From NCBI GenBank assembly GCA_000091205.1, contig AP006501.2: a DNA stretch of 64,000 nucleotides, one strand, 5' to 3'. A program made the translations under genes and the position numbers. Positions 14,205 through 52,625 of the stretch are shown piece by piece; the stretch's first letter is position 1, and each line of letters starts with the position of its first letter. Under the pieces are notes generated by a model. The model saw nothing but the letters and a program-made list of their open reading frames with translations. It searched no databases and was not told where the DNA came from. This stretch comes from Cyanidioschyzon merolae. Taxonomy: Eukaryota.

Positions 14205-15231
14205 GTGTCCATGGATGCTTTTCTACATGCATGCCTATACGTGTCCAATGGTATGTATCCATGTCCATGGGTGCTTTTCTACATGCACGCCTTTACGTGT
14301 CCAACGGTATGTGTCCGTGTCAATGGATGCTTTTCTACATGCATGCCTATACGTGTCCAATGGCATGTATCCGTGCCCATAGATGCTTTTCTACATGCAT
14401 GCCTATACGTGTCCAATGGCATGTATCCGTGCCCATGGATGCTTTTCTACATGCATGCCTATACGTGTCCAACGGTATGTGTCCGTGTCCATGGATGCTT
14501 TTCTACATGCATGCCTATACGTGTCCAATGGTATGTATCCGTGTCCATGGATGCTTTTCTACATGCACGCCTATATGTGTCTAATAATATGTGTCCGTGC
14601 CCATGGGTGCTTTTCTACATGCACGCCTATATGTGTCTAATAATATGTGTCCGTGCCCATGGGTGCTTTTCTACATGCATGCCTATACGTGTCCAATGGT
14701 ATGTATCCGTGTCCATGGGTGCTTTTCTACATGCACGCCTTTACGTGTCCAACGGTATGTGTCCGTGTCAATGGATGCTTTTCTACATGCACGCCTATAT
14801 GTGTCTAATAATATGTGTCCGTGCCCATGGGTGCTTTTCTACATGCACGCCTATATGTGTCTAATAATATGTGTCCGTGCCCATGGGTGCTTTTCTACAT
14901 GCATGCCTATACGTGTCCAATGGTATGTATCCGTGTCCATGGGTGCTTTTCTACATGCACGCCTTTACGTGTCCAACGGTATGTGTCCGTGTCAATGGAT
15001 GCTTTTCTACATGCACGCCTATATGTGTCTAATAATATGTGTCCGTGCCCATGGGTGCTTTTCTACATGCACGCCTTTACGTGTCCAATGGTATGTATCC
15101 GTGTCCATGGGTGCTTTTCTACATGCATGCCTATATGTGTCTAATAATATGTGTCCGTGCCCATGGGTGCTTTTCTACATGCATGCCTATACGTGTCTAA
15201 TAATATGTATCCGTGTCCATGGGTGCTTTTC
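14205..15231. repeat. 56-bp tandem minisatellite, ~18 copies, with a 4-unit (~224 bp) higher-order periodicity
   Basis: Direct observation: unit GTGTCCATGGATGCTTTTCTACATGCATGCCTATACGTGTCCAATGGTATGTATCC and variants recur with a 56-bp period (e.g. ATGGATGC at 14211, 14267, 14323). Confidence 0.95.
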
Positions 15232-16366
15232 GCTCTGGATATCAGAGTAATTTGGATGACAGGGCCGAGCGCTTCGCTCGAGTCCGTCGACGAGTTCCAG
15301 ACGTCCAGCGAGGGTGTGTTCGTTTTTTCAGTACAACGTGCATAAAAGATGAGCAACATGCCGTTTACATAGCGGACGTCCAAGCATCGCCTTCAACAAC
15401 GAGCAGGAAACGGACGAGGGTACCCGCCTTGCCATGCATCAACCGCGCCTGGGGCGATCGCGCGTCTAGTATTGTTACGTTTAGAGTCAACGCGTCGAGG
15501 CAACTCGTCAGTCGCCGCTGCGCATTGGAGTGCTCTCTGTGGCGAGCCCCCGGACTCGCGCAGAAAACCCAAGTTCAGGGCAACAACTCGATTTAGAGTA
15601 TGTAGTAGACCGATGATCGCAAACCTATCAATCTTCTTTGCAAAATCAAATCCGAACGGGAATGACAGAAAGCACCCAATTGGAATCACCCGAGCCATTT
15701 GCAGTACTTGGAGGCGGAAAAGCGCCAGCCGTCACCCATCCCGATGCGTAGCTACGTGTTGCTGGCGAGCTGCCCTGCGACGCAGCTCGCAACGCGTACC
15801 CTGAAACCTTGAACACCCCCGTTGCTTGATCGATGACATGCGGAAGCGTCCGTTCAGTAGATCGATCCGATTTTTCACCGCTTCATCGGCTGGGTTCGCG
15901 CAGCACTAGGGGTGCGCTTCCGTGTATCGATGGTATCCTAAAGAGACTCGGAGAGCAGCGCAACACCATCGCGGTCGATGCTGCCAATGCGATTCACGGG
16001 GATCGCCTGCGGATGCACGCGCCAGTCGGAGATCCCGCCTAGAGACGGAGCGCTGCACATCGCTTCCTCGTCCTGCTCCTCCGATTCAATGTGCGGCTGC
16101 AGGCGCGCCTGCCTTTGAGGTTGTCGCACCCAACGCCTGGCTACGCTAGGCAGAAGCCAAGGCGTCTGTACTATCGTGCAAATCGGCCGCATTCATCAAA
16201 AAAAGGAGGCTGCCTTAGCCGAACACGCAGTGCATGAAGCGCTTCTCCTAGCCGTCGTGCGGGGTACACCATTCGCGAGACTCGTATCGCCCCAGAATCC
16301 TGAGAATAAAGTACCGAAATTTGGTCGGGAGCTCAACATACTAGGTTCAAGACGAGATTTCCAGAT

Positions 16367-19300
16367 CTAGTGCATCGAGCGGCGCTCTGAAGAAAACAGG
16401 CTTGGCGATGCCCCTGGAGATGACGTCTCACGCAGCGTAGGGGCGTTTTCGCGGTCACTGTGCGCCGGACTCGTGGTATCCTGTTCCGCTGCGCTCGGAT
16501 GAAGCTGCCGTACCGCACTGGTGGCGCAGTGAGTTGATGCAACAGAACGCTGGTCGGGCTCATACTCGTAGCCAGCAATATTCCAGCCGAATGTCGCTGC
16601 CGGAGCGTTTGTGAAATTCGGTGCAGCAACACCATCACCAACGCCAACACAATCACCAGCAGCAGGAGTCTCCGTCACCAAATTGGCAGTGGCGCGTATC
16701 GCTGACTCGCGCGGGTAGCGTTCGACATGCTCAGCTGCGAACGCAGGTGGTGCTGCAGTAACCTCAGCAACAGAAGCGGCCTGGTCCACCGGCCGTCGCC
16801 TGGGTCGGCGCACCCGTAGCCACCATATACCAGGGCCGTAGCTCGCTGCAACCCACCAGTGTCGACGCCTGCTCGGGCGCTTACCGGGAGCACACGCTGC
16901 TGTTTGGGATGCGTACAAGTCCTTTGGCGTTTTTGAGAAGAACAATCCCGGGCCATAGGACGCCGCCACAGACCAAGACGGTCGTTCTGGCCTGATCGCA
17001 ACACTGCCATCGACGCGGTTCCTAGCTTCGGAGTCCTGGGGTGTGCGTACGCGCGTTTCACCGTCGCCAGTCGCTCGGGTGTCAAAACGAATAAGAATAC
17101 GAGGCTGTTGCTGTGAGTGAGGTCCCTCGGATACAAACGGCAGCGCCGGTGCCCAGGATGCAACGCGGTGCCTCTTCTGGGCGGCTCGTTGTTGAGAGCG
17201 CAGTTGCCGGGCACGCTCGCGCAGAGCGGCGGCCTCGGTCTCCCGTCGCAAGCGGCGCATAAAGGCATTGTCTCGCATTTCCGGACGACCTAGCATCTCC
17301 GCTTGATTCAGTAGGAAACGCGCCTCGGCGATGACCTCTTCGGGTGCGTAGCCTCTCATTTCCCCGTAAGGTAGCACGAGCAGCTTACTGAGATTCCGGA
17401 AACTGCACGCCTTAGAATTCGGAAAAGATGCACACAGGATACTCACGCGTATGGACAACTCGAATTTGCGTCTAGTGGTGGCGAAATACGGTTCATGGGA
17501 CGGATGCGGTGTAACAAGCTTGTACCACGCCCGTGCCGTTCGTATCCAAATGCATACTTCACCGTAATCGATGCACCATTCGAGAATACGACTAGTTCGA
17601 ATCATCGTTGGTCGGAGCTTGACACTTCCAGGACCAGCGCCCGGGATCAGCAGACCTTCGGCGACGAGCGAATTCGGCGTTTCCAGAGCTCCCGGGCCGC
17701 CGCCAGTGTTGCGTTTCGCGGACGTCTGCTCCAATTCCAGGGCATCCAGACAGGCGTGCTCTCCCGTACACTCGTCCAGGATGCGGAACCAGGTGAGAAG
17801 CCGCTGCGGGAGTGCGCTTTCTGTGTTCGTTGCATCAGCAGCGTTATGATGAGAGCTACTTGCATCAGTAGCCGGCAAGTTCATCTCAGGTGGAATATGC
17901 TCCTCTAGTACCATGGCATCGTCGTTAACGCTGCTCGATGACTTTGTTGCTGCCATGGTTTGCTCCTCTGCTACACCATTTTCACGTTCCTGAAGACGAG
18001 ACGATGTTCGTTCCCTTCGCTGCAGTTGCGCTTCAGCTTCGGCGCGCTCCCGTTCGGCTGCACGAAGCGCTCGTTCGATTTCCGCTCGTTGGCGCTTTGC
18101 CAGACGCTCTATTCGTTCCAGTTCGCGCCGACGTTCCAACTCCTCGCGTCTGCGTTGGCGTTCCAGTTCCTTTGCTTCCTCTTCACGCTGCTTCCGCAGC
18201 TCCTCTTCCCGCTGGCGAGCAAGTTCCAGTTCTTGGACCCGGGAGGATGTCCGTTTTGTGGCAAGCAGCCGCTCGAGACGTTCTCGACGGCGTTGCAAAC
18301 GCTCTAATTTGCGACTGTGCTCTTCCCAGACGGGAAGAAGTTCCTGCTTGAGCCATTGTCTCAAAGCGCGTTCTCTGGAACGGGGTCGAGCATCGTCCAG
18401 CGTCTCGATGAGGTCTCGCAGGGCATCCGGCCCCTGCGCAGCAACGCACCACTCGTAGTGCGGCGAAGGTTTTGCGCCCCTGCGTCGGCCTTTCGTGGAT
18501 TTCAAAGCGCTCGTTTCTGTGTCGTCAAGCAACTCCCTATACAAGCGGCAATTGTCGTCAAAGTACCAATATAGCGCTCCGTTCCTATCGATGCCCACTG
18601 GCAGGATTCGCAGGTCGTCATGGTGTAGTTGCCGCAAATCCTTCAAGTAGCGGTTATCTTCGTTCGGACTACAGAGTACGAACTCGCAGAGCGCGTACAA
18701 AATGAGCAGGCGTTGGCTTGCCCTCAGCTGCAGGAACGCTTCCCAGCCACCGGCCTCGAGCGCATCCATGATAGACGCTGCATCTGCAGACTCAGTGCTG
18801 GTGGAGCGCTCCTCCGGATACAGCCCAAGGTTGATCATTTCCGCCAGATGCTGTTGAAAGAAACGAACGAACTGCGGAAACCATAAAGCATCCGCTCGTT
18901 GGACCCAGTCCGCACGCTGCAGTGCTGCCACTGCGCGACTCCCGTCATGCTCTGTTCTGGTGCCACTGCCAGTGCGATACCCAGCCAGGCTTGCCATTAT
19001 TTCTGCCAAAATGGGCGCATATTGTGGCGTCTCCAGAGCGTGCTCGAGCTCCATGGGCGTCACGTCAGGAATGCCGAGGCGTTTGGAGAAGACTTGCAAT
19101 AGACGCCAGGTCGCCGGCAGCTGCCACATCGCCGAGGGTTCTAACCCTTCTAAACTTCGCTCGTCCAACTCGTGCATAGAAATGTTTTCCAACTTCCGCA
19201 ACCCTGAGGTGTAGATCAGACTCTGCCGCGGTTCTGTCGATATCGAAGCCGACTCTTTGACACGTTTCCGTCGCTGCCCCGGTGACCAGGTCGCTGCCTC

Positions 19301-19618
19301 TTCCGAGTCCTCCTCTGGAGTCGAGACCTCACTCTCTGTCGGTTCCGATGCTTCATCGGAACTTGACGAGCGAGACGTTGCTGGCAGGCGCCAGCGCGCC
19401 CTGCTGCTTACCACTGAACTATGCTCCGAGGAAGATTCCGAACTTGAAGAGGCAGCAGCCTCCTGGTTGGTGCGTCTGGTGCGAGCAGACCTCCGTAGCT
19501 GGCCGTCGACTTTTCGACTCCGCGAGCCATACTGCTCCTCCTGGATATTATCCCCACCTTTGAGCACGCCTGTGATGTTACGTTCGGCTTCTCGTGCCGC
19601 TTTACGGCGCGGACGCAT
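16367..19618 (-). CDS. DDT/WHIM-domain chromatin-associated protein with Ser/Glu-rich N-terminus and long ER-rich coiled coil
   Basis: DDT-like segment (WRLLQVFSKRLGIPDVTPMELEHALETPQYAPILAEIMASL); WHIM1-like motif (LRILPVGIDRNGALYWYFDD); WHIM2-like C-terminal segment (ILEWCIDYGEVCIWIRTARAWYKL); ~150-aa ELERRRELER coiled coil. Confidence 0.6.
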   Translation of the reverse strand: MRPRRKAAREAERNITGVLKGGDNIQEEQYGSRSRKVDGQLRRSARTRRTNQEAAASSSSESSSEHSSVVSSRARWRLPATSRSSSSDEASEPTESEVSTPEEDSEEAATWSPGQRRKRVKESASISTEPRQSLIYTSGLRKLENISMHELDERSLEGLEPSAMWQLPATWRLLQVFSKRLGIPDVTPMELEHALETPQYAPILAEIMASLAGYRTGSGTRTEHDGSRAVAALQRADWVQRADALWFPQFVRFFQQHLAEMINLGLYPEERSTSTESADAASIMDALEAGGWEAFLQLRASQRLLILYALCEFVLCSPNEDNRYLKDLRQLHHDDLRILPVGIDRNGALYWYFDDNCRLYRELLDDTETSALKSTKGRRRGAKPSPHYEWCVAAQGPDALRDLIETLDDARPRSRERALRQWLKQELLPVWEEHSRKLERLQRRRERLERLLATKRTSSRVQELELARQREEELRKQREEEAKELERQRRREELERRRELERIERLAKRQRAEIERALRAAERERAEAEAQLQRRERTSSRLQERENGVAEEQTMAATKSSSSVNDDAMVLEEHIPPEMNLPATDASSSHHNAADATNTESALPQRLLTWFRILDECTGEHACLDALELEQTSAKRNTGGGPGALETPNSLVAEGLLIPGAGPGSVKLRPTMIRTSRILEWCIDYGEVCIWIRTARAWYKLVTPHPSHEPYFATTRRKFELSIRVSILCASFPNSKACSFRNLSKLLVLPYGEMRGYAPEEVIAEARFLLNQAEMLGRPEMRDNAFMRRLRRETEAAALRERARQLRSQQRAAQKRHRVASWAPALPFVSEGPHSQQQPRILIRFDTRATGDGETRVRTPQDSEARNRVDGSVAIRPERPSWSVAASYGPGLFFSKTPKDLYASQTAACAPGKRPSRRRHWWVAASYGPGIWWLRVRRPRRRPVDQAASVAEVTAAPPAFAAEHVERYPRESAIRATANLVTETPAAGDCVGVGDGVAAPNFTNAPAATFGWNIAGYEYEPDQRSVASTHCATSAVRQLHPSAAEQDTTSPAHSDRENAPTLRETSSPGASPSLFSSERRSMH

Positions 19619-19744: not shown

Positions 19745-20035
19745 AAGAGGAAGCAGAAGCAGAAGCAGCAGCAGGTTGAGCTAACGTTCATCAAGGCAAC
19801 TACACACTGATCTACCTTTGTTTGATGACTACGGCAGTAGAAATGTCGCCACTAGGAAGCAGTAGCAGGAGGTTGAGCTAACATTCAACAAGGCTACTAC
19901 AAACTGATCTATCTTTTTTAGATGACTACGGCGGCAGACAAGTCTCCACTAGGAAGCAGCAACAGGTCGAGCTAACGCCGATGAAAGCAACTACATGCAA
20001 TACCCTTGATAAGTGACGACTGCAACAGTTGTGCA
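19745..20035. repeat. ~96-bp tandem repeat, 3 copies
   Basis: GAGCTAAC anchor recurs at 19778, 19875 and 19969; each unit contains GTTGAGCTAAC...ACTGATCTA...GATGACTACGGC...CCACTAGGAAGCAG. Confidence 0.85.
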
Positions 20036-20400: not shown

Positions 20401-20988
20401 ATGCAGCCAAATGGAGCAGCACCTCTGAACTGTTTGTGGCGATGGGTTTTACCAGAGTGCTGGGGTCCTCTCGGAATCCTCTTTGAGCAGATATCGCCGT
20501 ACTGGTTTGCGTACGTTGGTGTGGCCCTCGCGATAGGACTCTCTGTGCTTGGGGCCGCGTGGGGTATATTCATCACGGGGTCTTCGCTCGTGGGGGCCTC
20601 GATTCAAGCTCCGCGCATCACTTCGAAGAACCTCGTTTCGGTCATTTTTTGCGAAGCGGTCGCCATATATGGAATAATTGCCGCTATAGTCATGGCGACT
20701 CGAATCGGCTACGCGTCTGTGGCTGAAAGCGACCCTGTCACCAAGTTCGGTGGATATGCGCTTTTCGCGGCGGGCCTGGTCGTCGGGCTGAGCAACCTGT
20801 TCTGTGGGTTAAGCGTTGGCGTCACGGGCAGTAGCTGTGCGCTGGCCGACGCCCAAGATGCAACAATCTTCGTGAAACTGCTTATCGTTGAGATATTTGC
20901 GTCAGCACTGGGTTTATTTGGGGTCATCGTCGGCATTATCATCAGTTCTAAAGCCACGCTCGGTGGCGATGCAAGCGCTGGTCGCTGA
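20401..20988 (+). CDS. ATP6V0B: V-type H+-ATPase proteolipid subunit c'' (V0 sector, 4-TM form)
   Basis: Strong match to the c'' subunit pattern: LSVLGAAWGIFITGSSLVGASIQAPRITSKNLVSVIFCEAVAIYGIIAAIV ... GLSVGVTGSSCALADAQDATIFVKLLIVEIFASALGLFGVIVGIIIS. Confidence 0.85.
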   Translation: MQPNGAAPLNCLWRWVLPECWGPLGILFEQISPYWFAYVGVALAIGLSVLGAAWGIFITGSSLVGASIQAPRITSKNLVSVIFCEAVAIYGIIAAIVMATRIGYASVAESDPVTKFGGYALFAAGLVVGLSNLFCGLSVGVTGSSCALADAQDATIFVKLLIVEIFASALGLFGVIVGIIISSKATLGGDASAGR

Positions 20989-22814
20989 CTAGTGCAAGGA
21001 AACTCGGGCCAATACGATTCTCAGAGCAGTGCGTTCTTGAACGCCTGCACCAGCAAACCTTTTCTGTTTTCTCGCAGGTATTCAATGAAAGGAATGTGGT
21101 CTATAGATTGGGGGAAGGTCGCAGCGGGACATGATGCTGTGAGCCCTACCTTACGAAGGAATAGTCATGCTCCTACGAGTCAGACATTCACTGGTCTGCA
21201 TGTAGATGAAGCACTCTCATCGTAGTCCGTTCTGAACCTTGTGCATCCAAAATGGAGCTTCTCAAATTTTGTATAAAAAACTATCTTCTCGTCAATCCGT
21301 CATACTCCATATTTTCTCTACGATACGCTATCAAAGAAACCACACGGTGTGAAGCTTCCGTGGCATTGATTCGGAAATTGATGGAAAGACTCGGGTGGAT
21401 AAAGAAACTGTCGCGTTTATACAGAAGACCATGGCGCGTTGGAAGACACACCACTGACTTTGCACTGAAAAATGGGCGCTTATCATACGAGGCACGGGTG
21501 CTCGCCCTATTCGATAAGGCTGAATTCGGGGGAAACGGTAGACCTGTACATGGATACACAAACAGGGGAAACCGCCCTTCCCAAGGAAGAAACAAGCGAG
21601 AATGACGACAACACAAGCCCTAGCGGCGTTTTGAATACGGTTTTCGCCTACAAAGCCCCGGACGGCAGAATCGTTGAAGGACTCATGCTTCGTGGATGCA
21701 CTTTTTGGATCCTCCATTCCACATGCCTCTGTCATTTTTATAGAGAACGTCAATTTCTATCACTTGACAGCGGCCGAAGAGTACGCAAAATGAGATTGAC
21801 ATCCAGCTACTCATCATGCGAGCGAATTCTCCCTCGCTCAGTCCAATCGAAGGCGTCTTTTCTATTCTCAAACGTCATTTTAGTGCTCAGAGATCAGTAG
21901 ACGAGTTGTTCGCATCGATATGACAAAAAGATGCAGGGTGTCATTCCGGATCGCGCAATTCCCGACTCGAGAAACGCTCGCCTAGCTTCCGTCACCTCGA
22001 CGCACCGGGCCTGGCAACTCTCACCAGAAATTCCGGACGCATGATTTCAAACGGTCCATCTCAATCCGAAAATTTTCGATCAAATATTCGTACAATAACG
22101 GAACTGATATTCGGGACAGAATGTGCAATACGACCTGATCGCGTGGTCAGAGACACGCCTCCGCGCTTCCATGAATATGTCGAGCGAACTTTCGAGGGAA
22201 CCTTTCGCGTTCTGCGTAGGCATTCTGTTGGAATGCTAGAGAGTTGCCATGAAAAAGAATCAGTGGCCAGAGGATAGAGAGACACTGTAATTTCGCCTGA
22301 TTCAAAGCACTAGTCTAGCGCGGTTCAGCAATCCAGAAAGACCGGAGTGCAGTATGGATTTACGGGAGGATGGCTTTCTCCAGAATATTCGTACAGCATA
22401 ATCGCGTTCCATTATTCAACATGACTGAGTATAGCGCGGTGATTCCGGGTTCGCAACGCGACACCTGTGAACGCCTACTGCATTTTTCAGACACACGTCG
22501 CATCCATACGACTCCTTGGGACGCTACACGTCAGCCTCCTGGGCGTATTCGATAGCAAACATCGATTTGTTTACAAGCAGATTGCATTTTTGCCGGTCGA
22601 TGCGACGGTGCATCTGAGGATCATATGTAGAGCGCGAGAACCTCAATCAGTCCACGAGGTCACGTTTCCTCACGAATCCTCGACGGGTACATGAATCTGT
22701 CCATACGCTGAACGGCGCTGAACGCAGACGTCCGGCGCGGCGATCATCCGGCGGATTCCAGCGCACCCTTACGCACACACACTCGGTGCTTCTGTTGTGC
22801 GCGATGATGCACAA

Positions 22815-24616: not shown

Positions 24617-27600
24617 ATGCCGCAGGGTTCGCTGTTGTCATCGTCATCGGCAGCATCTGCAGGTACTTCAGTCACTGCACATAGGGAACCGACTAGATGG
24701 CGACGACGATGGCAGCGGCAAGCATCAGACAACGAAACAGAACACCACGTGAACTTGGAGCTCCAGTTACCCGAACCGCCAAGCCCCGAGGCAGCAGAGG
24801 CGCAGCTGGTTGCAACGCTGCTGCAGTCCTGGGAGCGGTCCTTGCAGCGCCCGGTTCCCGAGTCGAGCGATGATGAACCTGCCTGGGTGCAAACTGACTT
24901 TGCGTGCGTGCATCACTACCGCGAGTACTGGATACGCCGCATAGAAAACGAGTGGGTTGCAGCAGTCGCAGAAAGCGCTGCGCTGAGGGTTGAAGTGAAC
25001 GCTTGGGCAGTGACCATTGCCTCTGTAGAGCCGACCTGCACGGACTACGCTGATCGCGCTGTTCTTCAGTGGGCAGCCGGCGTCGATCCGCCACCAGACC
25101 TGGATTCACAAGACGTATACTTCCTGCAAGTCGAACGCGGGCGCAACGCTGCGTCTGGCGCTGGGCCCATCGTTCCTGCTTTACGGTTGACTCGATTGGG
25201 CTTTGCGAGCTGTTCAGGGAACGTTCATGAGTTTAGCGTTTGGATTCCGCGAAACTGCCTCCATATGCAGCAACGCACTGGTACAGTTGCCCGACTATGG
25301 CGAGCGTTCTCCGATGAGCGCGAATGGCGAACTGGGCTTGTACCTTTTGTGCGACAGCTCCAAGCGGTAACCCGGCTAGGCCAGATCCATCGACCGCTCT
25401 TGTATGCGCTGATCAGGCCCCAGGAGCATTTCAGTAGCGGGCGTAATGTGCCGCCGAACGCCTTGCCAGGTTTCCAAACACGGAAGCAGCAGCAGCAGCA
25501 GCAGCAGCAGCAAGAGCGCTATGCGAACATCCGGGAGATGAATAGTGGCGGGAGCGTCAAACCTGATTTTTCTCTTGGTTTGTTGAATGATGGACAGATG
25601 CGAGCGATTACAAGAATTGTAGAGGCTCGCCCCGGCTCTGTGACGTTGATCGTTGGCCCGCCAGGAACGGGAAAGTCGCGGACCATCATCGGGGCGCTGA
25701 GACGTCTCACGGGAGAAACACCAGCGCCGCGTCTTCTTGTATGCGCACCGTCAAATCATGCGGTGAGGCTGCTCTACGAACAGTTCCGGTCGCAGTCCGA
25801 TACTACGCGGCCGGTTGGTATTGCGTGGTTACAGGCGCAATCCCAGCGACAGGAACATGCCAATAATGCCCCAAACTCCAATAACGATGGCCAAATAGGA
25901 ATCGAGTGGAACGCTCTTGTTCATGACGTTCCCATACGGAACGCGGACGTTGTCTTCGCGACTCTGAATAGTGCAGCTGGGCTAGGGTTTCAGGGTACGG
26001 GGAGGATGCGAGAGCGACCCTTCCAGTACGTGATTGTGGATGAAGCGTCTCAAGCTGTTGAGCCGGATACGCTGATACCGCTCATCCTCGAGTCTTTTTG
26101 CCCGACGAATTTCCCGCATGGTGATCGGATGGAACCCGAAACCATCGCTCCAAGCAGACTTGTGCTTGTAGGCGATGCTCGACAACTACCCGCCACAGTG
26201 CGATCGCGCTTGAATCAGGCTAGTGGATATGACAAGTCGCTTTTCGAGCGACTTTCCGAGGCTGCAGAACGCGTCCACGGAGCTGCGCTGTGTTGGCTAG
26301 ACGAGCAGTATCGCATGCATCCGTCGATCGCCGCGTTTCCGTCACATTTTTTCTACGGGGATCGTTTGCGTACAGCTTGCCAAGTTTGTGAGCGTCTGAG
26401 AGGCGTCGACTCTCCGATAGAGCTTTTGGACATGTCAGGCGACGCCGAACATCGAGAAATTCGAGTGGCCACTAGCCTGGCAAATCCGTACGAGGCAGCT
26501 CGACTTGTACGATGGTTAGCTGAGAATCAACCGAAACTTGTCGGAAGTAGGAAAGATCCGCTGACTGTTTTGTTGATCACGCCGTACCGGGCTCAGGTTC
26601 GTTTTCTGGAAGAAGCGCTTCAGGAGTTCCATCTTTGGACGCCAGCAGCTGCAGCATCGTCGCAACCAACACGAAGCCGTCAGGAATATCGAGTTGCCAC
26701 CGTGGATGCCGCCCAGGGTGCAGAGGCTGACCTCGTGATTTTCAGCCCTGTTCGGAGTGCCCGACACGGAGTGAGCGCATGTACAACGCCCCGAGCGCTG
26801 AGCATCGGTTTTGTGGCGGATACCCGGCGACTCAATGTAGCGCTCACAAGGGCACGATCGCAGCTCGTTGTTGGCGGCGACCTGCTTACGTTGGTTCGAG
26901 CCTCACCAGTTTTTGCCGCATGGATAACGTTTCTGTGTGAGCGCAAGCTCGTTCCGAACCCGGAGGCACTCTGGGAACGTCTCTGTGAGGGACTCGAACA
27001 CCCGCCAAACGAGCGGACAACGCTGGTGGATACATCGGATCCTGTGGCGTCCGGCTTCGCGGATGCATCCGAGGCTGCAAAGGCGCGCAAGCCCGATGTC
27101 GTCGCTAGGCAGAACCGTCGTAACGAGGCGGCCTGCGCGCCCATCTACCCATGCAAGATCTGCCGGCAGGCGTCAACCCGGATCTCTGCCGCAGTAGCTC
27201 GGAAACAGACACTGGGGTCCTTGCAGGAGCCGCGGTCTACGCGACACAGTCCTACCGCTGGCTTGCCACCAGCAGTGGCATCGATTTCCTGCGCAAAAAT
27301 GAAACGCACACAGAAGGATGCGCGGATAGCTGCAGCGCGTGCCGAGGCCGCCACTGCACGCATCATTCACTCCGATGACGACGCATCATCCGACGCGGGC
27401 TCGCTGCCGACCAGAGGCGGGAGAGCAGCGCAGCTGTTGCGAAGGCATCGCACCAACGGCGGCGGGTATGCTACAACGCGACCGCAGCCAGTGCACAAGG
27501 GTGTCGACCGGCGCTGGCGCTCCTCGAGCGATGCTATTGCCGGCACCAATGCGGATCACTTTACGAAGCGGATACGGGCAGCGAGACCAGCGCCATCGTC

Positions 27601-27943
27601 AGTTCCAGGACTGACTGGGGGATCGGCACCGTCGGCCGCCGCGTTGGCGACTGTTTTTGAATCACCATGGCCCCGTGAACGCGTTTCTGCCGAGCAGCAA
27701 CGCCAACTCGATCGCGTCTCCTCTGTGCAGAGGTTCGCTCTCGGTGGAGCCACGACGACACCAGTAACGCTGGCAGTTGGAGATCGTTTTCGCGAGCCCT
27801 CGCTGCACACTGGATCCGTCGCACGAAACTCCACGGCAGTGCAACGCATCGCGAGCCGACTTGCCGAAAGAGCAAAAGACACATTGGAGAATGTCCGCCG
27901 TTCAGCGATATTCGACAAGGAAGGCTCTGGTGATGCGCGCTGA
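24617..27943 (+). CDS. Superfamily-1B Upf1-like RNA/DNA helicase (DNA2/NAM7 family; Sen1/SMUBP2-related) with polyQ tract and long disordered C-terminal tail
   Basis: Walker A VTLIVGPPGTGKSRTI, motif II FQYVIVDEASQAVEPDTLIPL, motif III LVLVGDARQLPATV, LDEQYRMHPSIAAFPSHFFYGDRL, motif V TVDAAQGAEADLVIFSPVRS, motif VI VADTRRLNVALTRARSQLVVGGD. Confidence 0.85.
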   Translation: MPQGSLLSSSSAASAGTSVTAHREPTRWRRRWQRQASDNETEHHVNLELQLPEPPSPEAAEAQLVATLLQSWERSLQRPVPESSDDEPAWVQTDFACVHHYREYWIRRIENEWVAAVAESAALRVEVNAWAVTIASVEPTCTDYADRAVLQWAAGVDPPPDLDSQDVYFLQVERGRNAASGAGPIVPALRLTRLGFASCSGNVHEFSVWIPRNCLHMQQRTGTVARLWRAFSDEREWRTGLVPFVRQLQAVTRLGQIHRPLLYALIRPQEHFSSGRNVPPNALPGFQTRKQQQQQQQQQERYANIREMNSGGSVKPDFSLGLLNDGQMRAITRIVEARPGSVTLIVGPPGTGKSRTIIGALRRLTGETPAPRLLVCAPSNHAVRLLYEQFRSQSDTTRPVGIAWLQAQSQRQEHANNAPNSNNDGQIGIEWNALVHDVPIRNADVVFATLNSAAGLGFQGTGRMRERPFQYVIVDEASQAVEPDTLIPLILESFCPTNFPHGDRMEPETIAPSRLVLVGDARQLPATVRSRLNQASGYDKSLFERLSEAAERVHGAALCWLDEQYRMHPSIAAFPSHFFYGDRLRTACQVCERLRGVDSPIELLDMSGDAEHREIRVATSLANPYEAARLVRWLAENQPKLVGSRKDPLTVLLITPYRAQVRFLEEALQEFHLWTPAAAASSQPTRSRQEYRVATVDAAQGAEADLVIFSPVRSARHGVSACTTPRALSIGFVADTRRLNVALTRARSQLVVGGDLLTLVRASPVFAAWITFLCERKLVPNPEALWERLCEGLEHPPNERTTLVDTSDPVASGFADASEAAKARKPDVVARQNRRNEAACAPIYPCKICRQASTRISAAVARKQTLGSLQEPRSTRHSPTAGLPPAVASISCAKMKRTQKDARIAAARAEAATARIIHSDDDASSDAGSLPTRGGRAAQLLRRHRTNGGGYATTRPQPVHKGVDRRWRSSSDAIAGTNADHFTKRIRAARPAPSSVPGLTGGSAPSAAALATVFESPWPRERVSAEQQRQLDRVSSVQRFALGGATTTPVTLAVGDRFREPSLHTGSVARNSTAVQRIASRLAERAKDTLENVRRSAIFDKEGSGDAR
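25487..25513 (+). repeat. (CAG)8CAA microsatellite encoding a QQQQQQQQQ tract inside the helicase CDS
   Basis: Direct observation of cagcagcag... run; in-frame polyglutamine in ORF 24617..27943. Confidence 0.9.
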
Positions 27944-36080: not shown

Positions 36081-36181
36081 GCTTCCCTGGATAGCTGGAA
36101 AGTTTCTTGACGGCGATGAAACAGCTTCAGGGCCGCCATCATCTGTAATTGTTGAAAACGTCGTGCACTATATGAAGTCTA

Positions 36182-37105
36182 TCACGTGAGGGATTGCTCG
36201 CAATCATTCGATTCCCGGTCCGGTTCCGGTCTCATGTCTGAGACTTGACACACCAGTTTGGGTTCCAAAATGTCCTTCGCTGATTGGATCAGTGCGAGTT
36301 CCGGTGGGACCCCTGCTTCAACAATCTCTCCCTCATCCAGGGTTCGCCGCAGCACATGGTACACTGTTGAGAACGCGTATTCCACAGCTTGTTGGAGATT
36401 TGGTACCCGAGCGCTCCACGCTAGCAGAAGCGCTGCAGACAGATCGCCGGTGCCGGTGAATGATCCGGGCAACCGTGACGGAAGCTGGAACCACTTGCTT
36501 TGTTTCCGAAGCGCTTCCGAGAGGTACACGCAGGGACGTTGGTGCTCGTCTGCCTCTGCACCGGTGACCACAATGACAGGCACCTGGTAATGCGTATGCA
36601 GCCAATGGCAGGCACGTTCGATGTCGGTCTCATGCGGTACGAGAAGTTGAAGCTCGTACGCGTTCGGAATAATTAAGTGCGCCCTTGGAATTAGAATATC
36701 TCGATAGGCCTCGACCATTTCGGGAGGCACGTAGAGCCGTCCGTTGTCGCCTAGAACCGGATCGCAGAGGTACCAAACCGGCTCCTGACCGGCTCTCTCC
36801 GAGTTAAGAAGGTCAATAAGCTCGCGAACGACCTCCAGGAGCTCGCGAGACCTAATATACCCTGTTAACAGGTGCGTTACGCTTTTTAAAAGCCCATTCG
36901 GTAGGAGGCCGTTCCAAACGATTCGTCGCAGCTGCTCGGCGGTGAGACTCTCCCCGGCTTTGTGGCGATATCCCGTGTGGTTCGCAAAGTGCACCGTGTT
37001 GACAGGATCCACGTCCCAGCCGAGCAATTGTAGAGGAAACGTAGCTGCTTTCTGACCCACATAGCCGTGCACCACGTGCGACTGCACGCTGAGTACCCGG
37101 GGCAT
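36182..37105 (-). CDS. PDXK: Pyridoxal kinase (PdxK, ribokinase superfamily); ORF track extends 5' to 37318 but homology begins at the ATG at 37105
   Basis: N-terminal signature MPRVLSVQSHVVHGYVGQKAATFPLQLLGWDVDPVNTVHFANHTGY matches pyridoxal kinases; C-terminal GTGDLSAALLLAW ATP-binding region. Confidence 0.85.
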   Translation of the reverse strand: MPRVLSVQSHVVHGYVGQKAATFPLQLLGWDVDPVNTVHFANHTGYRHKAGESLTAEQLRRIVWNGLLPNGLLKSVTHLLTGYIRSRELLEVVRELIDLLNSERAGQEPVWYLCDPVLGDNGRLYVPPEMVEAYRDILIPRAHLIIPNAYELQLLVPHETDIERACHWLHTHYQVPVIVVTGAEADEHQRPCVYLSEALRKQSKWFQLPSRLPGSFTGTGDLSAALLLAWSARVPNLQQAVEYAFSTVYHVLRRTLDEGEIVEAGVPPELALIQSAKDILEPKLVCQVSDMRPEPDRESNDCEQSLT

Positions 37106-37450
37106 GAAGAGCGTACACCAGGAAGCGCGAGAAGTTGCCACGCGAGCGCCTTGGTGGCCGTGCGCGAACGCAGAAGCAAAGCAGCGTATAGATAGGAGGC
37201 GTGGTGAGTGCTCGCGGCAGGCTATATACCCGGAATAACGTACGAGCAAACTGCCAGATCCGGAGGAAAGTATGGTTGGTGGTGTTGCTTGTTGGAACTT
37301 GGTGGTATGGCGCAGCATGACGGTCGCGGATCACGGTCGCGCAACTGCGTATTCCAGGTTTATGTATCAGCAATCCTACGCTCTAAGAAAACGTTCAGTC
37401 GATGGACTCGAAACAGACGGCTAACTACGACGCCGAATATACTCGCCGGG

Positions 37451-37886
37451 TCGTCGATGGTATTCACTGCATTATCCCCATCGACGGAACGTTGATACAG
37501 CGCTGTACTAGTCTTCTGCACGATGCATATCGGTCGTCGATCATATTCACTGCATTATCCCCATCGACGGAACGTTGATACAGCGCTGGACTAGTCTTCT
37601 GCACGATGCATATCGGTCGTCGATCATATTCACTGCATTATCCCCATCGACGGAACGTTGATACAGCGCTGGACTAGTCTTCTGCACGATGCATATCAGT
37701 CTTCGATGGTATTCACTGCATTATCCCCATCGACGGAACGTTGATACAGCGCTGGACTAGTCTTCTGCACGATGCATATCGGTCGTCGATCATATTCACT
37801 GCATTATCCCCATCGACGGAACGTTGATACAGCGCTGGACTAGTCTTCTGCACGATGCATATCAGTCTTCGATCATATTCACTGCG
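37451..37886. repeat. 83-bp tandem repeat, ~5.25 copies
   Basis: CATTATCCCCATCGACGGAACGTTGATACAGCGCTGGACTAGTCTTCTGCACGATGCATATCGGTCGTCGATCATATTCACTG recurs with an 83-bp period (CATTATCC at 37470, 37553, 37636, 37719, 37802). Confidence 0.9.
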
Positions 37887-40837: not shown

Positions 40838-42913
40838 GGCGAGCGTCCGACAACTCCCGGTACTGCTCTGTAGGTGTGTGCTGAGCGGGTGTGCGGAGCA
40901 GAAGCTGCACGGCGGCTGCCTATGGATCGACGACATCGGTAGTTGACGTCATTCGCATGGTGGACAGGTATTGCCCGGTGTTGGTAGCGACCGTGTTTGC
41001 AGCGACGAACAGGAGCATCTGACGTCGTTCCGTTGGCATCACTCGGATCTTTCAACAGTAAAGAAGGCTTGGACTGTACGCACCGACCAGAGTGTTCATC
41101 GACTCTGTGGACATTCCACGATACACTGCGCTGCGTTGCTCGCATTCGCTTTCCTCGCAAAGCGACGTTGGCGTTGCGCCCACAAGCGATCGCTGCAGCG
41201 CACGCTGGACAGTGATCCATGCATCGTGCACTGCCGCAGCACAGCTGACACCACACTCCCTCGCTACGCATCTATTATGGACCGTGAAAACACGCTTGAA
41301 CGGTGCCGGCGACGATATGCATACTGGCGACGGTGAACCTAGTGATGTCGATTCCGATACGACGAAGGAGCAGAGTGTGCAGTGCCTCCCGTCACATATC
41401 TTGAAAAACACATGACTTGTGGGTGTTCATTCCCAAATCATTTCCCCGTCCGATGATTTCGCATCCATACAAGTAACATGCGTATTTAGAAGCCCGCTGA
41501 ACACCGCCCCGAACGGGAAAGCAGCGCGTGCGTCTGCAGTCTGTGCTGCTCAGTTCGTAGGGTGCACCACGCAGCCGCGATCAGACGTGCGTCGATGGAC
41601 GCTCTCCCGTTTGCCAATGAACATCATACAATGAGCGATGCTCGACTCTTGTCTACACGATCTTACGCCTCAAGAAACAAGTCAAGTGCGCGTCACCGTA
41701 CGTGCTGGTCTGGTGAAGCGCGTCCGGGTCCGTTCGACGGCGAGCACCTGCAGCGGACTCGGCACCCTCAGTGTCTCCAGAGCGGAGCGCTGCGCTGCGG
41801 AGCGATGTCTCTGCGTAACTTCGGTGCCAGGTTCAACCGAGTCAGTGCAAAGCAGGAGAATCCAACACAAGGTCTTCGAGAAGCGGCACGGGTGATCCAT
41901 GTGAATCAAAAAAGCACGACACATGCTGTATCGATGTTGGCATGCTTCTGGATACACGGTGGCATGTAAGATGCAGGCGCTGGGAAATGCATGAGAGCAA
42001 CCATAAGGCACGGACGGGTGCGTCTGAACAAGACCGATACCAGCGTTTCGGCGCTCTTGTTTTCGCAGCAGATCCGAATGGTCCAGTACCTTGTCCTTGC
42101 GTTTACGTGCTTGACCAGTCATGTATACCAGAAAACAATGTGACAGGTGGAATATGGAGCACGACGACTGCAGCGAACGCAAAGTCCATCGTTCTTGCGC
42201 CAGGATTCTCGTCGATACCCCAAACGCTGTCTACGTTCGGGTGTACACATCAGCCTCTTCGTCGATGTTGCTTGGCCGAGGGCGTGCTGCGGCACCTCGG
42301 TGCTCCACAACAACGGGCCATGCATCGACGGTTGCGTTCTCAGGCGCACGAAGGATCCTCGGAACATACACGCCAAACGCGCCTAGCTCCGGTGCTTCGC
42401 GTCCACCACCGAGTGCTTTCTCTGGTGTTATCGTTCTAGACCGGCAACCGGGCGTGCTCGTGCAACCTATCGGAGCCCAGATCCAAAGCGACTCCCGAAC
42501 CAGAACGAGGTCATGTACGCGCAAGGAGCCAACGTCCACAAGAACAACAAATTGCCGTCCGCTCTCCGTACCACCTTGGTGTTTGAGTTGGCAACCTGCG
42601 TTTCGCCAGACCTCTCCGTGCTGTACCCGTTACCCAAGAGTTTGCTGCTGCTCGCAAATCTCAAAAGTATTGCTGAGGGAGCTAGTACATATTCCTCAGT
42701 CGCCATCACTTTACATGCTTTGAGTTGATGCTGAATCGCTTCAACAATCCAGTACCTGAACCTGTAGCAGACATCCTTGTGGGGTATGTGCTGCGTTGGA
42801 CGGTACCTGCGCTGCTCACAGCGCCTTGGGCTGTGCACGTCGCCTCCGCTCGCCGAGCGCGCGTTCTACGCACTGGGCTCTAGTCCAGGCTCAGGACGCT
42901 TCTCTCAGACGAT

Positions 42914-44127
42914 ATGGTTGCCACCGACAAAGCCCGAGGCGTTGTACAGGCGGTTTCAGGCCCCGTAGTGGTTGCTCGCGACTGCCCAGCGTCCATGTAC
43001 GAACTGGTTCGCGTCGGACACGAACGCATCGTCGGTGAAGTGATTCGGCTCGAGGGCTCCTCGGTTACGATACAGTGCTATGAAGCCACCGACGCTTTGG
43101 CGGTAGGGGATCCCGTCGAGCGGACTGGTATGCCGCTGACAGTGGAACTCGGTCCTGGTTTAATGTCGAGCATATTTGATGGGATATCGCGGCCTCTGGA
43201 GAAGATTGCCACCCTCTCGGGGAGCGTGTTCATTCCCAGGGGCGTCGATGTGCCCTCTCTGGACCGGGAACGTCAATGGTACTTCGAACCGGACCCAGCG
43301 CTCTCTGTTGGTAGACTCGTCACCGGTGGTGACTGGATCGGAAGCGTCCAGGAGACCCCGCTTATCTTGCACCGGATCATGGTACCTCCGGGTACAATGG
43401 GCACCGTCGAATGGATCGCACCCAGTGGTTGGTATACCATCACAGACACGGTGCTGAAAGTGAGTCACCAGGGTGTCAGCAAGGCGCTGTCTATGATGCA
43501 GCGGTGGCCTGTGCGACAACCGCGACCCATCGCGGAGAAACTCGTCGCGAATACACCGCTGATCACAGGGCAGCGCGTTTTGGATACCCTGTTCCCGTGT
43601 GTTCAGGGCGGTACCTGTGCTGTGCCGGGTGCTTTTGGTGTTGGAAAAACCGTTATTAGTCAGGCACTGTCCAAATACTCGAACTCGGATGGAATCGTCT
43701 ACGTGGGATGCGGTGAGCGCGGTAACGAAATGGCAGAGGTTTTACGTGATTTCCCTGAGCTAACCATGTCGCTCGCGGACGGCGAGCAAGTGTCCATCAT
43801 GAACCGGACCCTGCTGGTAGCCAATACGTCGAACATGCCGGTAGCGGCCCGCGAGGCATCCATCTACACCGGTATAACAATTGCCGAGTACTATCGGGAC
43901 ATGGGACATGATATGTCCATGATGGCGGACAGCACGAGCCGCTGGGCAGAGGCGCTCAGGGAAATCAGTGGACGCCTAGCGGAGATGCCAGCGGATTCGG
44001 GGTTTCCGGCGTACCTGGCGGCACGTCTGGCTTCCTTCTATGAGCGCGCTGGGCGCGTCAAGTGTTTGGGCTCCCCTGAACGCACTGGTTCGGTGACCGT
44101 AGTGGGAGCTGTCTCGCCTCCTGGGGG
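42914..44127 (+). CDS. ATP6V1A: V-type H+-ATPase catalytic subunit A, exon 1 (phase-2 boundary; joins exon 2 at 44373)
   Basis: [21 protein letters not shown]...[30 protein letters not shown], Walker [13 protein letters not shown]; ORF ends at a stop that lies inside a GTAAGT donor. Confidence 0.9.
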
Positions 44128-44372
44128 GTAAGTTTCTTCAACAAACAGGCATCGGGTATCTCCCGGTGGCGTGTATGCGATATGTCAGCCATCGGGTCGT
44201 CATTATTGGCGTTCGAGACGAGCGCTTGATGCCAGAGCAATCCGCCGTGGATTGTAGCGTGTCCCGGGCGGAGCGTCCGCAGCGGGGATCACCCGCTGCC
44301 CCAAATGCCGTCGGGGCGAAAGCCACCACGAGCAACATTCTTTATCAATGACAGAAACTAACCTGTGAATAG
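44128..44372 (+). other. ATP6V1A: Spliceosomal intron (245 nt) of the V-ATPase A gene
   Basis: GTAAGT at 44128-44133; CTAAC branch-point-like motif at ~44358; AG at 44371-44372; splicing restores ...VSPPGG/G/DFSDPVTTATL..., the conserved V-ATPase A sequence. Confidence 0.85.
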
Positions 44373-45009
44373 TGACTTTTCCGATCCTGTGACCACTGCG
44401 ACACTATCGACAGTTAGTGTGTTTTGGGGCCTCGACAAACGCCTGGCCAGCCGCAAGTTCTTCCCCGCAGTGAACACAAACATTTCGTGGAGCAAAAATA
44501 TTCAAGCGCTGGAACCATGGTACGATGCGCACTATCCGGAATTCCCATCGATTCGCCAGACCGTACGTCAGATTCTCCAAATGGAAGAGGATCTAAGCGA
44601 AATCGTCGCCCTCGTTGGCCGCGATGCCCTCGCCGAGAGCGACAAGGTCGTTCTCGCGGCAGCCACCATGATTCGGGAGGACTGCCTCCAACAGAACAGC
44701 TACACCTCCTACGACGCCTACTGCCCGTTCCTGAAAAGCATGCTCATGCTTCGAAATATCGTGCTGTGGTACGAGCTTGCCCAGAAGGCAGTCGCCGAAG
44801 TGGATCGCGACGCGGGCGCCACGAGCGCATCGAATCGTCTTACGTTTGCGGGGTTGCGCGATGTGCAAATGGACCTCCTTAATCGACTTTCGCGAATGAA
44901 ATTCCTTGAACCCAGCATGGGAGATGATGCGCTGCGTCGCCATTTAGACGCGCTGCGGGATGATATCGTCAAAAGCTTCCGCGAACGCGACTGGGCGCTG
45001 ACGGCATGA
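44373..45009 (+). CDS. ATP6V1A: V-type H+-ATPase catalytic subunit A, exon 2 (C-terminal 212 aa)
   Basis: DFSDPVTTATLSTVSVFWGLDKRLASRKFFPAVNTNISWSK... is colinear with the C-terminal third of V-ATPase A; ORF-track start at 44365 is a GTG inside the intron/acceptor. Confidence 0.9.
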
Positions 45010-49969: not shown

Positions 49970-51697
49970 CTATGCACAGAGCCGCTGCTCCAGCTTGTCC
50001 ATGGCTAGTCGACGGCCAATGGGCCATCGAGCGACCACTTCGATCTGGTCAATATCGGGCTCACCGGCTGCATCGCCAAGTCGGAGTAATCGTTCAACCC
50101 CTGCCCAGGCTACCATGACGCCGTTATCCGTGCAGTAACGGAGTGGTGGAAAGATAATCGCCTGCTTCAGATCGCATGCAGGCGCTCCTGGATCGGTGCT
50201 CCAGGCCGCCGTGCGCTCCACCTCTTCATCATGTAAACGCCATCCAATCTCAGATGCTAGCTGTTGGAACCGTGCCCGCAACACGGAATTCGCTGCAACG
50301 CCGCCCGAAACCAGGAGCGACTGTACATCGGGCTCGTGCGTTCGACACCACAAAAGCGCCCGCCGCGTCTTTTCAAACAGGTGCTCCAGTGCTACGCGTT
50401 GGAAACTCGCCGCAATGTCGGCAGCTGCCTGTCGATTCACTTGCAGCAGTGTTGCGGTTTCGTCCCTGGATCCGTAGCGCTCCAGTTCGCGCTCAATCGC
50501 TACACGAACCGCAGTCTTGAGGCCAGCGAAAGAAAAATTACAATCCGGACGCTTACGGAGCGGAATCGGGAAATCAAAAGCGTTTGGGTTCCCCTCACGC
50601 GCCAGCCGTTCTAGTGCGGGTCCACCGCCTCCACCAACGTCCAGACCCAACAAGCGTGCGATTTTGTCGAAAGCCTCTCCGACAGAGTCATCCAGCGTAC
50701 CGCCAAGGACTTCAAAATTCCCGAGGTCACGAGCCAGAAGCAACATGCAGTGACCGCCGCTGACTAGCAGAACCAGAAACGGGAACGAAGGCCGGTAGCC
50801 TCCGAAAAGACGTGGCACCAAGCAGTGCGACTCGAGATGATGTGTTGAGATAAATACAGGGCCAGGCGCGCTCGATGCCTCCTTGAGTCGGCCCAGAAGG
50901 CGTTGGGCAGCGCGGAACCCCACTCGAAGGCAGATCTCGAGACCGGGTCCCATGGTCACCGCGACTGCGTCCAAGCCGTTGGCGCTGCGAGCCCACACCT
51001 CGTTTTGTGAGCATGTAAAAGCCTCGCACAATACGCGCTCAATAAGTTCATCGATCACCTGCTCATGGGCTTGACGTGCCAGCCCCGGCACAACGCCCCC
51101 GTAACGAGCATGGATACTGTCCTGCTTCACGACCGCTTCGGATAGGATACATCCTTTGCTGTTCACAACAGCGACCGCTGTATCATCGCAGGAGGTCTCA
51201 ATGCCTAGTACGAGGTGCGGGCGCGCACCGCCGCCCGTGAGTCGCAGCACAGTCAACCGTTCATCGGTGACTGGGGCGGCGTCTGCGGGGAGTACCAGAG
51301 AGAGCCCGCGCTGGGACGGTAAAGGCATTTTTAAAAGCCGTTCTTTCTGTGTGTCCGTGAACCCTAACGGGGCACTCCCGGTAGTGGTCTGTTGTACACG
51401 CAACGCTTGCTCGCTGCGGTCAAACTCGCCATAGTCGGTGCCCTTCGGCTGCCCGACGCGGGATCTATCGTGCCGAAAAGATTCCGCGCCAGATGCCATT
51501 GAAACTAAGGTTCCGAGACTCCTCGATGGCGCGGGCGTACGCCAGTACGTTCCTGTGCTGTGATGAAAAGGTGCAGTCGGACTCGTAACCAATCGAGGAG
51601 AAACTGCTGTGCGCACAAAGCGCGAGTGCCCCCTACACGGCTGTAATAGGGCAAACGCAAACACACGCGACTCTGCCGGTTTCTCGAGAAAAGGCAT
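49970..51697 (-). CDS. tRNA N6-adenosine threonylcarbamoyltransferase, TsaD/Qri7/OSGEPL1 type (organellar), with long N-terminal extension
   Basis: GIETSCDDTAVAVV (TsaD/Qri7-type rather than Kae1-type), metal-binding HxxH region (HHLESHCL / VSGGHCMLL), VSGGVAANSVLRARF and FPPLRYCTDNGVMVAWAG C-terminal motifs. Confidence 0.85.
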   Translation of the reverse strand: MPFLEKPAESRVFAFALLQPCRGHSRFVRTAVSPRLVTSPTAPFHHSTGTYWRTPAPSRSLGTLVSMASGAESFRHDRSRVGQPKGTDYGEFDRSEQALRVQQTTTGSAPLGFTDTQKERLLKMPLPSQRGLSLVLPADAAPVTDERLTVLRLTGGGARPHLVLGIETSCDDTAVAVVNSKGCILSEAVVKQDSIHARYGGVVPGLARQAHEQVIDELIERVLCEAFTCSQNEVWARSANGLDAVAVTMGPGLEICLRVGFRAAQRLLGRLKEASSAPGPVFISTHHLESHCLVPRLFGGYRPSFPFLVLLVSGGHCMLLLARDLGNFEVLGGTLDDSVGEAFDKIARLLGLDVGGGGGPALERLAREGNPNAFDFPIPLRKRPDCNFSFAGLKTAVRVAIERELERYGSRDETATLLQVNRQAAADIAASFQRVALEHLFEKTRRALLWCRTHEPDVQSLLVSGGVAANSVLRARFQQLASEIGWRLHDEEVERTAAWSTDPGAPACDLKQAIIFPPLRYCTDNGVMVAWAGVERLLRLGDAAGEPDIDQIEVVARWPIGRRLAMDKLEQRLCA

Positions 51698-52437
51698 TCA
51701 GCCGCTCACTCAAGGTCGCTTGCAGAGTTCAAGCGTCTTAGTTCCCTGAGACGGTCGCTTTGCACTGAGAACACAGCGGCTAGCGCGTTCCGCGACAAGT
51801 GCCCAAAAGGAAACAGGTAGTAGAACGGCATCTGTGGGTCACGGCAGGCTAGCGACGCACGCATCGGTGCCGCTGCCGCTCTATTTTGTGGGTTCAGTGA
51901 GTCTGCAGTCGATTGGCAGTTAGACGGATGCCGCGACTGAATTAGGAATGATTAGATTATGTGTGCGAGCAAGAATAGCATAACGACGACATCAGGACTA
52001 GTGCTTGTCACCCTGTAGTTGGAGTCCTCGGTTCCAACAAGTCACCACAAGTGCATAGCGCGTGCGCTGTTGTGCTGATTAAACGGCACATCCGGTGGTA
52101 AAGCATTGGTAGAGGCGGATGCTGCCTTGCGAATGTCATCGTTAAGACCAAAGCGGTAAGATGGCAAGGCGTGCCTCGTGCATCATGAGGCTGTGCATCA
52201 GCGCATCCGCTGCTGTTGCTCAGTCACCGACGTGTCCGTATGAATGCTCGATGCATCGTGCGTAGCTTGCTCGAGCGAGCGCTTGAGTTACTATAAATGC
52301 AGGGAAGCGCTCCGTGCCTTGAGATGGGCGGCAGCTCATGTTTGCGTTTGGACGCGCTGCGGTTCTTAGCGACAGCATCAAACAAAATAGCGAGCGGTGG
52401 AGTCTGTTTCCCGCCAGTTCCCATTCCGTCGACACGA

Positions 52438-52625
52438 ATCTGTGCAGGCTCCATTGTCATCCGCGCAACACATAAACTGCACCTCGGGTAGCCAGTCAGG
52501 TATCCGCGTCGGCGGTCGATAGCGCATGTAGCTAACAAGCATCTGTGCAGGCTCCATTGTCATCCGCGCAACACATAAACTGCACCTCGGGTAGCCAGTC
52601 AGGTATCCACGTCGGCGTTCGATCG
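52438..52625. repeat. ~103-bp direct repeat, 2 copies
   Basis: ATCTGTGCAGGCTCCATTGTCATCCGCGCAACACATAAACTGCACCTCGGGTAGCCAGTCAGGTATCC... occurs at 52438 and again at 52541. Confidence 0.8.

Follow-up and report, generated by a model that had tools for sequence, protein, structure and literature searches.

Why do the long tandem repeats of a compact genome lie in front of genes? The question is raised by a 64,000-nucleotide stretch of chromosome 19 from Cyanidioschyzon merolae 10D, a red alga (hereafter the window), in which four minisatellite arrays, numbered 1 to 4 here, all lie in spacers that contain the 5' end of a gene. A preliminary description of this DNA had read that placement as non-random and had proposed that minisatellites are a recurring promoter or insulator building block. 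We find that within the window the placement is what chance predicts. In contrast, tandem duplications with unrelated units recur in the orthologous spacers of related Cyanidiophyceae. Neither the inference from the window alone nor the idea of a shared module stands, whereas a non-random tie to particular promoter-containing spacers gains some support. The arrays are probably independent, young, locally generated minisatellites in promoter-containing spacers that are prone to duplication, tolerant of it, or both.

Four unrelated minisatellite arrays

Tandem Repeats Finder (TRF) detected exactly four long-period arrays in the window, in the same regions as described before, and repeat finding together with a self-blastn screen agreed with TRF on all four. 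Apart from these four, neither of the latter two methods turned up a tandem duplication in the window (periods of 10-600 bp). By all three methods the arrays are arranged head-to-tail with units in the minisatellite range (~10-100+ bp). Their copy numbers are trustworthy because the 10D genome is finished. The arrays, to which no strand is assigned, occupy 5'-containing spacers at distances of 131-344 bp upstream of the closest ATG.

14204-15231: array 1, 56 bp x18.4 (TRF, 90% matches), in the tandem spacer from the 3' end of an RFTS/WSD-motif gene (16367) to the ATG of a heavy-metal ATPase gene (13981)
19762-19995: array 2, 97 bp x2.5 (TRF, 79%; 2.4-2.5 copies of 79-86% identity), in a 782-bp divergent spacer between the RFTS/WSD gene (ATG 19618, - strand) and the V-ATPase c'' gene (ATG 20401, + strand)
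37449-37885: array 3, 83 bp x5.3 (TRF, 96%), in the divergent spacer between the pyridoxal kinase gene (- strand) and the M1 aminopeptidase gene (ATG 38072, + strand)
52438-52627: array 4, 103 bp x1.8 (TRF; 95-96% identity), in a 1212-bp divergent spacer between the TsaD gene (ATG 51697, - strand) and a protein kinase gene (ATG 52910, + strand)

The Pfam-based map confirms the flanking gene orientations given earlier, tandem for array 1 and divergent for arrays 2-4. Array 1 follows the RFTS/WSD stop codon at a distance of 1.1 kb and precedes the ATPase ATG by 223 bp. Array 2, previously given as ~96 bp x3 at 19745-20035, is real, with copies and span slightly overstated, and is the oldest-looking of the four. 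The GC content of the arrays (46-57%) is that of other spacers, and the lowest GC of any 500-bp segment is 45.6%.

Array 1 contains higher-order blocks of 4 units (224 bp): units 9-11 equal units 13-15, and identity is highest at a lag of four units (0.93). As judged from the unit alignment, this block structure would be the signature of multi-unit unequal exchange. Of the 14 variable columns, 12 differ between copies by transitions only, several of which alternate between C and T or between G and A at CG dinucleotides. CCATGG and CCAATGG sub-repeats are present in every unit, and the 56-mer has a weak 14/28-bp sub-repeat. Open reading frames (ORFs) span array 1 on the + strand merely because the 56-bp unit has no stop codons.

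The four consensus units have no 9-mer in common on either strand; they share just chance-level 7-8-mers, and blastn-short comparisons gave E-values of ~1 or higher. No additional copies of any unit were found elsewhere in the window, and no flanking inverted repeats of at least 16 nt were found around any of the four arrays. On these comparisons, the arrays appear to be minisatellites that were each generated locally and independently, rather than copies of a single module. The recurring building block, taken literally, has to be abandoned: the units are unrelated, they are not dispersed in the window and, as described below, their sequence is not conserved in sister species.

Several other identities were considered and rejected. 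A transposon or miniature inverted-repeat transposable element is contradicted by the lack of inverted repeats of at least 16 nt at the arrays and of dispersed copies in the window. A tRNA gene (tDNA)/TFIIIC insulator or hidden RNA gene was discarded because neither ARAGORN (0 tRNA genes) nor Rfam (0 matches) found a candidate in the window, B-box motifs alone not having been searched. Coding repeats are excluded by unit lengths that are not multiples of 3 and by the lack of tblastx conservation in any array spacer. A shared cis-regulatory module is at odds with the lack of a motif common to the arrays and with alignments between these spacers and those of relatives that score at the level of shuffled controls. 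The C. merolae centromere is a single CENH3-bound, AT-rich region per chromosome. The ~1-kb array 1 was rejected as a centromere in view of the lack of an AT-rich island, the condensin/CENH3 paper giving no chromosome 19 coordinates.

Placement within the window

The window is ~55% GC, gene-dense and nearly devoid of introns, and 62% of its mapped span is coding. After removal of the arrays, its non-coding DNA comprises 5572 bp of convergent, 6029 bp of divergent and 8325 bp of tandem spacers, so that convergent spacers make up 28%. It is correct, as noted earlier, that none of the four arrays lies in any of the 8 convergent spacers of the window. Under a random scatter over the non-coding DNA, the probability of 0/4 in convergent spacers would nevertheless be 0.27, and that of at least 3/4 in divergent spacers 0.086. 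With a liberal gene set, run alongside the conservative map, the same test gave 0.24 and 0.12, respectively. The window alone thus offers no ground for calling the placement non-random. Short-period repeats are present in convergent spacers, at 4718, 22180, 22706, 45180 and 45445 (TRF).

The sole non-random aspect within the window is the exclusion of the arrays from coding DNA (P = 0.016). It is a trivial one, given that none of the unit lengths (56, 97, 83 and 103 bp) is divisible by 3. Since 62% of the DNA is coding and most of the rest is in promoter-containing spacers, the 5' placement needs no further cause. It is the chance expectation in so compact a genome, and four events had been over-read. 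As first stated, the finding is ordinary: in a ~62%-coding, almost intron-free genome long-unit repeats are confined to spacers, the bulk of whose DNA adjoins a 5' end, hence a 5' location is unremarkable. The tandem-repeat density of the window is not unusual for C. merolae, for which the genome-wide Ensembl TRF listing has 3335 rows in 16.5 Mb (PMC11050394). The arrays belong to a published, TRF-annotated genome, and promoter-proximal minisatellites are already a known kind of feature; our literature search turned up no study of where C. merolae minisatellites lie.

The within-window figures (P = 0.27 and 0.086) are fully compatible with an explanation by pure chance and permissiveness, in which arrays arise at a uniform rate and persist in any non-coding DNA, the 5' pattern and any co-location between species being sampling accidents. 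It is the comparison with related species that bears against it.

Recurrence in orthologous spacers

Whether arrays are conserved at orthologous positions was a question posed ahead of seeing the data. Syntenic loci were compared in species A (L001, L098 and L100), a relative with 62-70% protein identity, in Cyanidiococcus yangmingshanensis (L099, L101 and L005) and in Cyanidium caldarium (L102). One uniform self-blastn screen was applied to all species, with thresholds for the relatives set during the analysis, and the sample amounts to 4 + 6 arrays in ~64 kb per species from one chromosomal region. Gene order and orientation are conserved in species A, Cyanidiococcus and Cyanidium. The spacers themselves are unalignable, local alignment scores between C. 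merolae and the three relatives being equal to those of shuffled controls. The C. merolae units are absent from the relatives' spacers, in which no single-copy progenitor sequence is recognisable. Six non-coding tandem duplications were found in the relatives' loci.

L098 13235-13380: species A, 72 bp x2, upstream of the ATPase gene (spacer of array 1)
Species A, 129 bp x1.6, in the aminopeptidase/pyridoxal kinase gap (spacer of array 3)
Species A, 82 bp x2.5, in the kinase/TsaD gap (spacer of array 4)
Species A, 83 bp x1.8, upstream of the V-ATPase A gene (no C. merolae counterpart; outside the four spacers)
L001 9403-9610, L001 4406-4558 and L100 9230-9443: coordinates of these last three species A arrays
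L099 9683-9813: Cyanidiococcus, 90 bp x1.5, in the V-ATPase c''/RFTS/WSD gap (spacer of array 2)
L102 13004-13340: Cyanidium, 118 bp x2.3-2.9, upstream of the ATPase gene (spacer of array 1)

Five of these six arrays lie inside spacers orthologous to the four of C. merolae, with unrelated units, and those of species A are identical in three separate assemblies. As the four orthologous spacers represent 20-37% of the non-coding DNA per species, the Poisson-binomial probability of this co-location is 0.003 over all non-coding DNA, 0.012 over 5'-containing spacers only and 0.002 by spacer number. When only default TRF matches are counted, 3/3 are in orthologous spacers (P ~0.015). All 10 arrays of the four species are outside convergent spacers (P ~0.044 when the shares are multiplied, a value that is not independent of the co-location test), and all 10 lie in spacers with a 5' end, their starts being 130-560 bp away from the closest ATG. 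These values make chance with permissiveness a rather poor explanation, which we regard as quite unlikely, even though the four spacers count among the longer ones, six events enter the test, its thresholds were chosen with the data in view, and one species A array, that upstream of V-ATPase A, is outside the four spacers.

Recurrence of this kind could instead reflect function. Such arrays would multiply transcription-factor sites or exclude nucleosomes, their copy number would tune the flanking genes, and selection would keep a repeat in place while its sequence turns over. By analogy, about 25% of yeast promoters carry tandem repeats that affect nucleosomes and expression (PMC3899988). Both the location of the 10 arrays in 5'-containing spacers close to an ATG and the co-location of five of the six would fit this explanation. 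The best argument for it is that an array is found upstream of the orthologous heavy-metal ATPase gene in 3/4 species (units of 56, 72 and 118 bp), since tunable expression of this gene would be plausible in metal-rich acid springs. A further point is the 12-mer CGATCGATGAAT common to the ATPase-upstream units of species A (L098 13286 and 13358, + strand) and Cyanidium (L102 13173 and 13291, - strand), which is not a common motif in the compared loci. It has opposite orientations relative to the gene in the two species and was not found in the spacers of C. merolae or Cyanidiococcus; its sharing may be a coincidence or may mark a small conserved site. Also against this explanation, no motif is common to the arrays or to most orthologous pairs, Cyanidiococcus has no array in 3 of the 4 spacers despite keeping the genes and their orientation, and arrays of 1.5-2.5 copies would provide little multiplicity. 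On balance, we consider selection for functional promoter repeats unlikely.

A third explanation would make the arrays homologous by descent, present in the common ancestor and then homogenised within, and erased between, species by concerted evolution (unequal exchange and conversion). The same spacers are occupied in up to three species, high identity within arrays stands beside saturated divergence between species, and the block duplications of array 1 would represent ongoing exchange. Against this, the unit lengths bear no simple relation to each other (56/72/118, 83/129, 103/82 and 97/90), and no internal sub-periods linking them across species were found beyond the weak 14/28-bp sub-repeat of the 56-mer. 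Most of the relatives' arrays have fewer than 2.5 copies, too few for homogenisation, and Cyanidiococcus lacks 3 of the 4. Descent from ancestral arrays is accordingly highly improbable.

Other features of the Cyanidium block were recorded. The ATPase-upstream spacer that holds the 118-bp array also contains a (GT)22 microsatellite (L102 13482-13525), a further sign that this spacer is repeat-prone. The block is much more compact, with spacers of 4-826 bp, and the large AAA_11/AAA_12 helicase gene (window 24617-27943) is missing from its otherwise syntenic order.

Arrays in metagenome contigs

All four arrays are present in short-read assemblies of hot-spring metagenomes, on contigs sharing 99.5-99.7% identity with the window. 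Array 1 has 7.4 copies in a metagenome contig versus 18.4 in the window, a difference that could reflect either short-read collapse or true polymorphism. Array 3 has 1.3 or 2.3 copies, or is interrupted by a contig break, versus 5.3 in the window, for which short-read collapse is again possible. The array 2 spacer has an unchanged length (782 bp) in the 99.5%-identical contig L097, and array 4 is identical in L017 and L018.

Three further observations come from contig comparisons. The Logan contig L006 (1387 bp, aligning to 36092-37478) covers the pyridoxal kinase gene and stops 90 bp past its stop codon and 30 bp inside array 3. The end of L006 is a k-1 break; if the contig is derived from RNA-seq, the kinase transcript would start in or beyond the edge of array 3. 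An in-frame (AGC)n microsatellite in the helicase gene has 9 copies at window 25485-25512 versus 12 at L097 4097-4133, which is a coding length polymorphism between strains, L097 being a 99.5%-identical metagenome contig. A 13-bp x2.5 repeat at 31725-31755, 330 bp 5' of an 898-aa gene, is kept in all C. merolae-like metagenome contigs.

Origin and persistence of the arrays

Copies within arrays are 90-100% identical but the spacers are unalignable between species, and therefore the arrays are either far younger than the species splits or continuously homogenised. We favour independent origin in duplication-prone and/or duplication-tolerant spacers, in which each array would have arisen separately by local tandem duplication of ordinary spacer DNA. 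Growth would then proceed by slippage or unequal exchange, including the multi-unit block duplications of array 1. Arrays would persist only where they are harmless, coding DNA having no place for units of a length not divisible by 3. Recurrence in the same spacers would follow if the central part of certain promoter-containing spacers were duplication-prone, through open chromatin and sites of breaks or replication stress, and/or tolerant. The arrays occupy the middle of their spacers, which core promoters and untranslated regions would leave free, and open chromatin there would favour breaks and slippage. That no required function is involved, like this mutational mechanism itself, is what we infer from the pattern.

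Several points weigh against this explanation. The cross-species recurrence (P ~0.003-0.012) would be equally expected from selection for a repeated promoter architecture. The sample is tiny and comes from a single region, and the thresholds used to screen the relatives were fixed during the analysis. The copy-number differences seen in natural C. merolae-like contigs fit true polymorphism as well as collapse in short-read assembly.

Comparison with known systems

The arrays resemble eukaryotic minisatellites or variable number tandem repeats (VNTRs) in having head-to-tail 56-103-bp units, 2-18 copies of 79-96% identity and single, non-dispersed loci, and the block duplications of array 1 are typical of unequal exchange. 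Variation in copy number between individuals, which defines a VNTR, is here no more than hinted at by short-read metagenome contigs with fewer copies. The genome in which they are found is otherwise repeat-poor, with 0.7% transposable elements (PMC1955436).

The promoter repeats of Saccharomyces cerevisiae are similar in that a compact genome with few introns carries tandem repeats in intergenic DNA that contains promoters, and about one-third of the 5'-containing spacers in the window have an array, comparable to the ~25% of yeast promoters (PMC3899988). According to the account of Vinces et al. (2009) given in PMC3899988, the yeast repeats are mostly short-unit and AT-rich and lie in nucleosome-free regions, and their effect on expression was shown experimentally. 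In contrast, the algal units are long (56-129 bp), have an ordinary GC content (46-57%) and are known here from sequence alone. The arrays also share with insulator or boundary elements (tDNA, TFIIIC and CTCF-type) a location between neighbouring transcription units; unlike these elements, they are accompanied by no tRNA or known RNA gene in the window and by no binding motif common to the arrays.

Promoter-associated recombination hotspots are evolutionarily stable in position in several lineages, including yeasts, plants and birds (PMC11703093). The algal arrays are comparable in that their position is kept across species while their sequence is not, and in that they are tied to promoter-like regions. 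By this analogy, stable hotspots would explain recurrent duplications in the same spacers, if arrays indeed mark breaks. A broader proposition, which we put forward only tentatively, is that certain promoter-containing spacers of the Cyanidiophyceae may be repeat-bearing sites conserved by position and not by sequence, in which lineages with saturated intergenic divergence would each produce tandem duplications of their own, either as break/recombination hotspots or as selected, copy-number-tunable promoters.

Gene map of the window

The conservative map of the window has 21 genes and was built from Pfam, a solved-structure search and tblastx conservation versus the three related species. The genes flanking the arrays are the following.

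11291-13981, - strand: P1B-type heavy-metal P-type ATPase (Pfam E1-E2_ATPase and Hydrolase), with array 1 upstream of its ATG
16367-19618, - strand: RFTS (DNMT1-RFD)/WSD-motif protein (Pfam; ATG 19618)
20401-20988, + strand: V-ATPase proteolipid (c'') subunit (Pfam, two ATP-synt_C repeats)
36182-37105/37318, - strand: pyridoxal kinase (Pfam); its 378-aa ORF (36182-37318) is 100% identical to C. merolae 10D XP_005538957.1
38072-40837, + strand: M1 aminopeptidase (Pfam; tblastx conservation from 38072)
49970-51697, - strand: TsaD/Qri7-type tRNA t6A synthase (Pfam; ATG 51697)
52910-54565, + strand: Ser/Thr protein kinase (Pfam; orthologue alignment from residue 1 of the model starting at ATG 52910)

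The best solved relatives of the ATPase in the structure search are ZntA, CadA and CopA, and its N terminus matches that of its orthologues from MSTWAFQVKW onward. The N termini of the ATPase (13900-13981) and its orthologues display an AFQVKW-like start that includes Phe, with an Arg-rich stretch and a CCG motif behind it. The resemblance to a red-algal plastid transit peptide together with a metal-binding site suggests a putative plastid heavy-metal pump. The gene next to it was previously labelled DDT/WHIM. That label is weak, because WSD falls just below the Pfam cut-off (24.8 versus 25.4 bits); DNMT1-RFD is a solid Pfam match, and homologues of the protein are found in Cyanidiophyceae only. 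For pyridoxal kinase, conservation with the relatives begins near the ATG at 37105.

Two other features concern the gene map. ORFs at 9247-9921 (- strand), 21472-21900 (+ strand) and 41682-42723 encode 140-224 aa, lie in long spacers and have neither a Pfam match nor conservation in the relatives. They may be species-specific genes or not genes at all, with a slight effect on the classification of spacers. Two ORFs (42914-44131 and 44365-45009) make up the V-ATPase A gene. The interruption between them (44129-44372), with GTAAGT ... ACTAAC ... AG, looks like a canonical intron, which would be among the very few in this genome.

Significance

What is worth keeping from this locus is a modest new lead: four red algae, deeply diverged from one another, have unrelated tandem duplications co-located in their orthologous spacers. 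C. merolae is tractable for following it up, as its genome is finished, it has homologous recombination and a sexual cycle has newly been described. If true genome-wide, such co-location would be a cheap, sequence-only marker of conserved break/recombination hotspots or of repeat-based promoter tuning.

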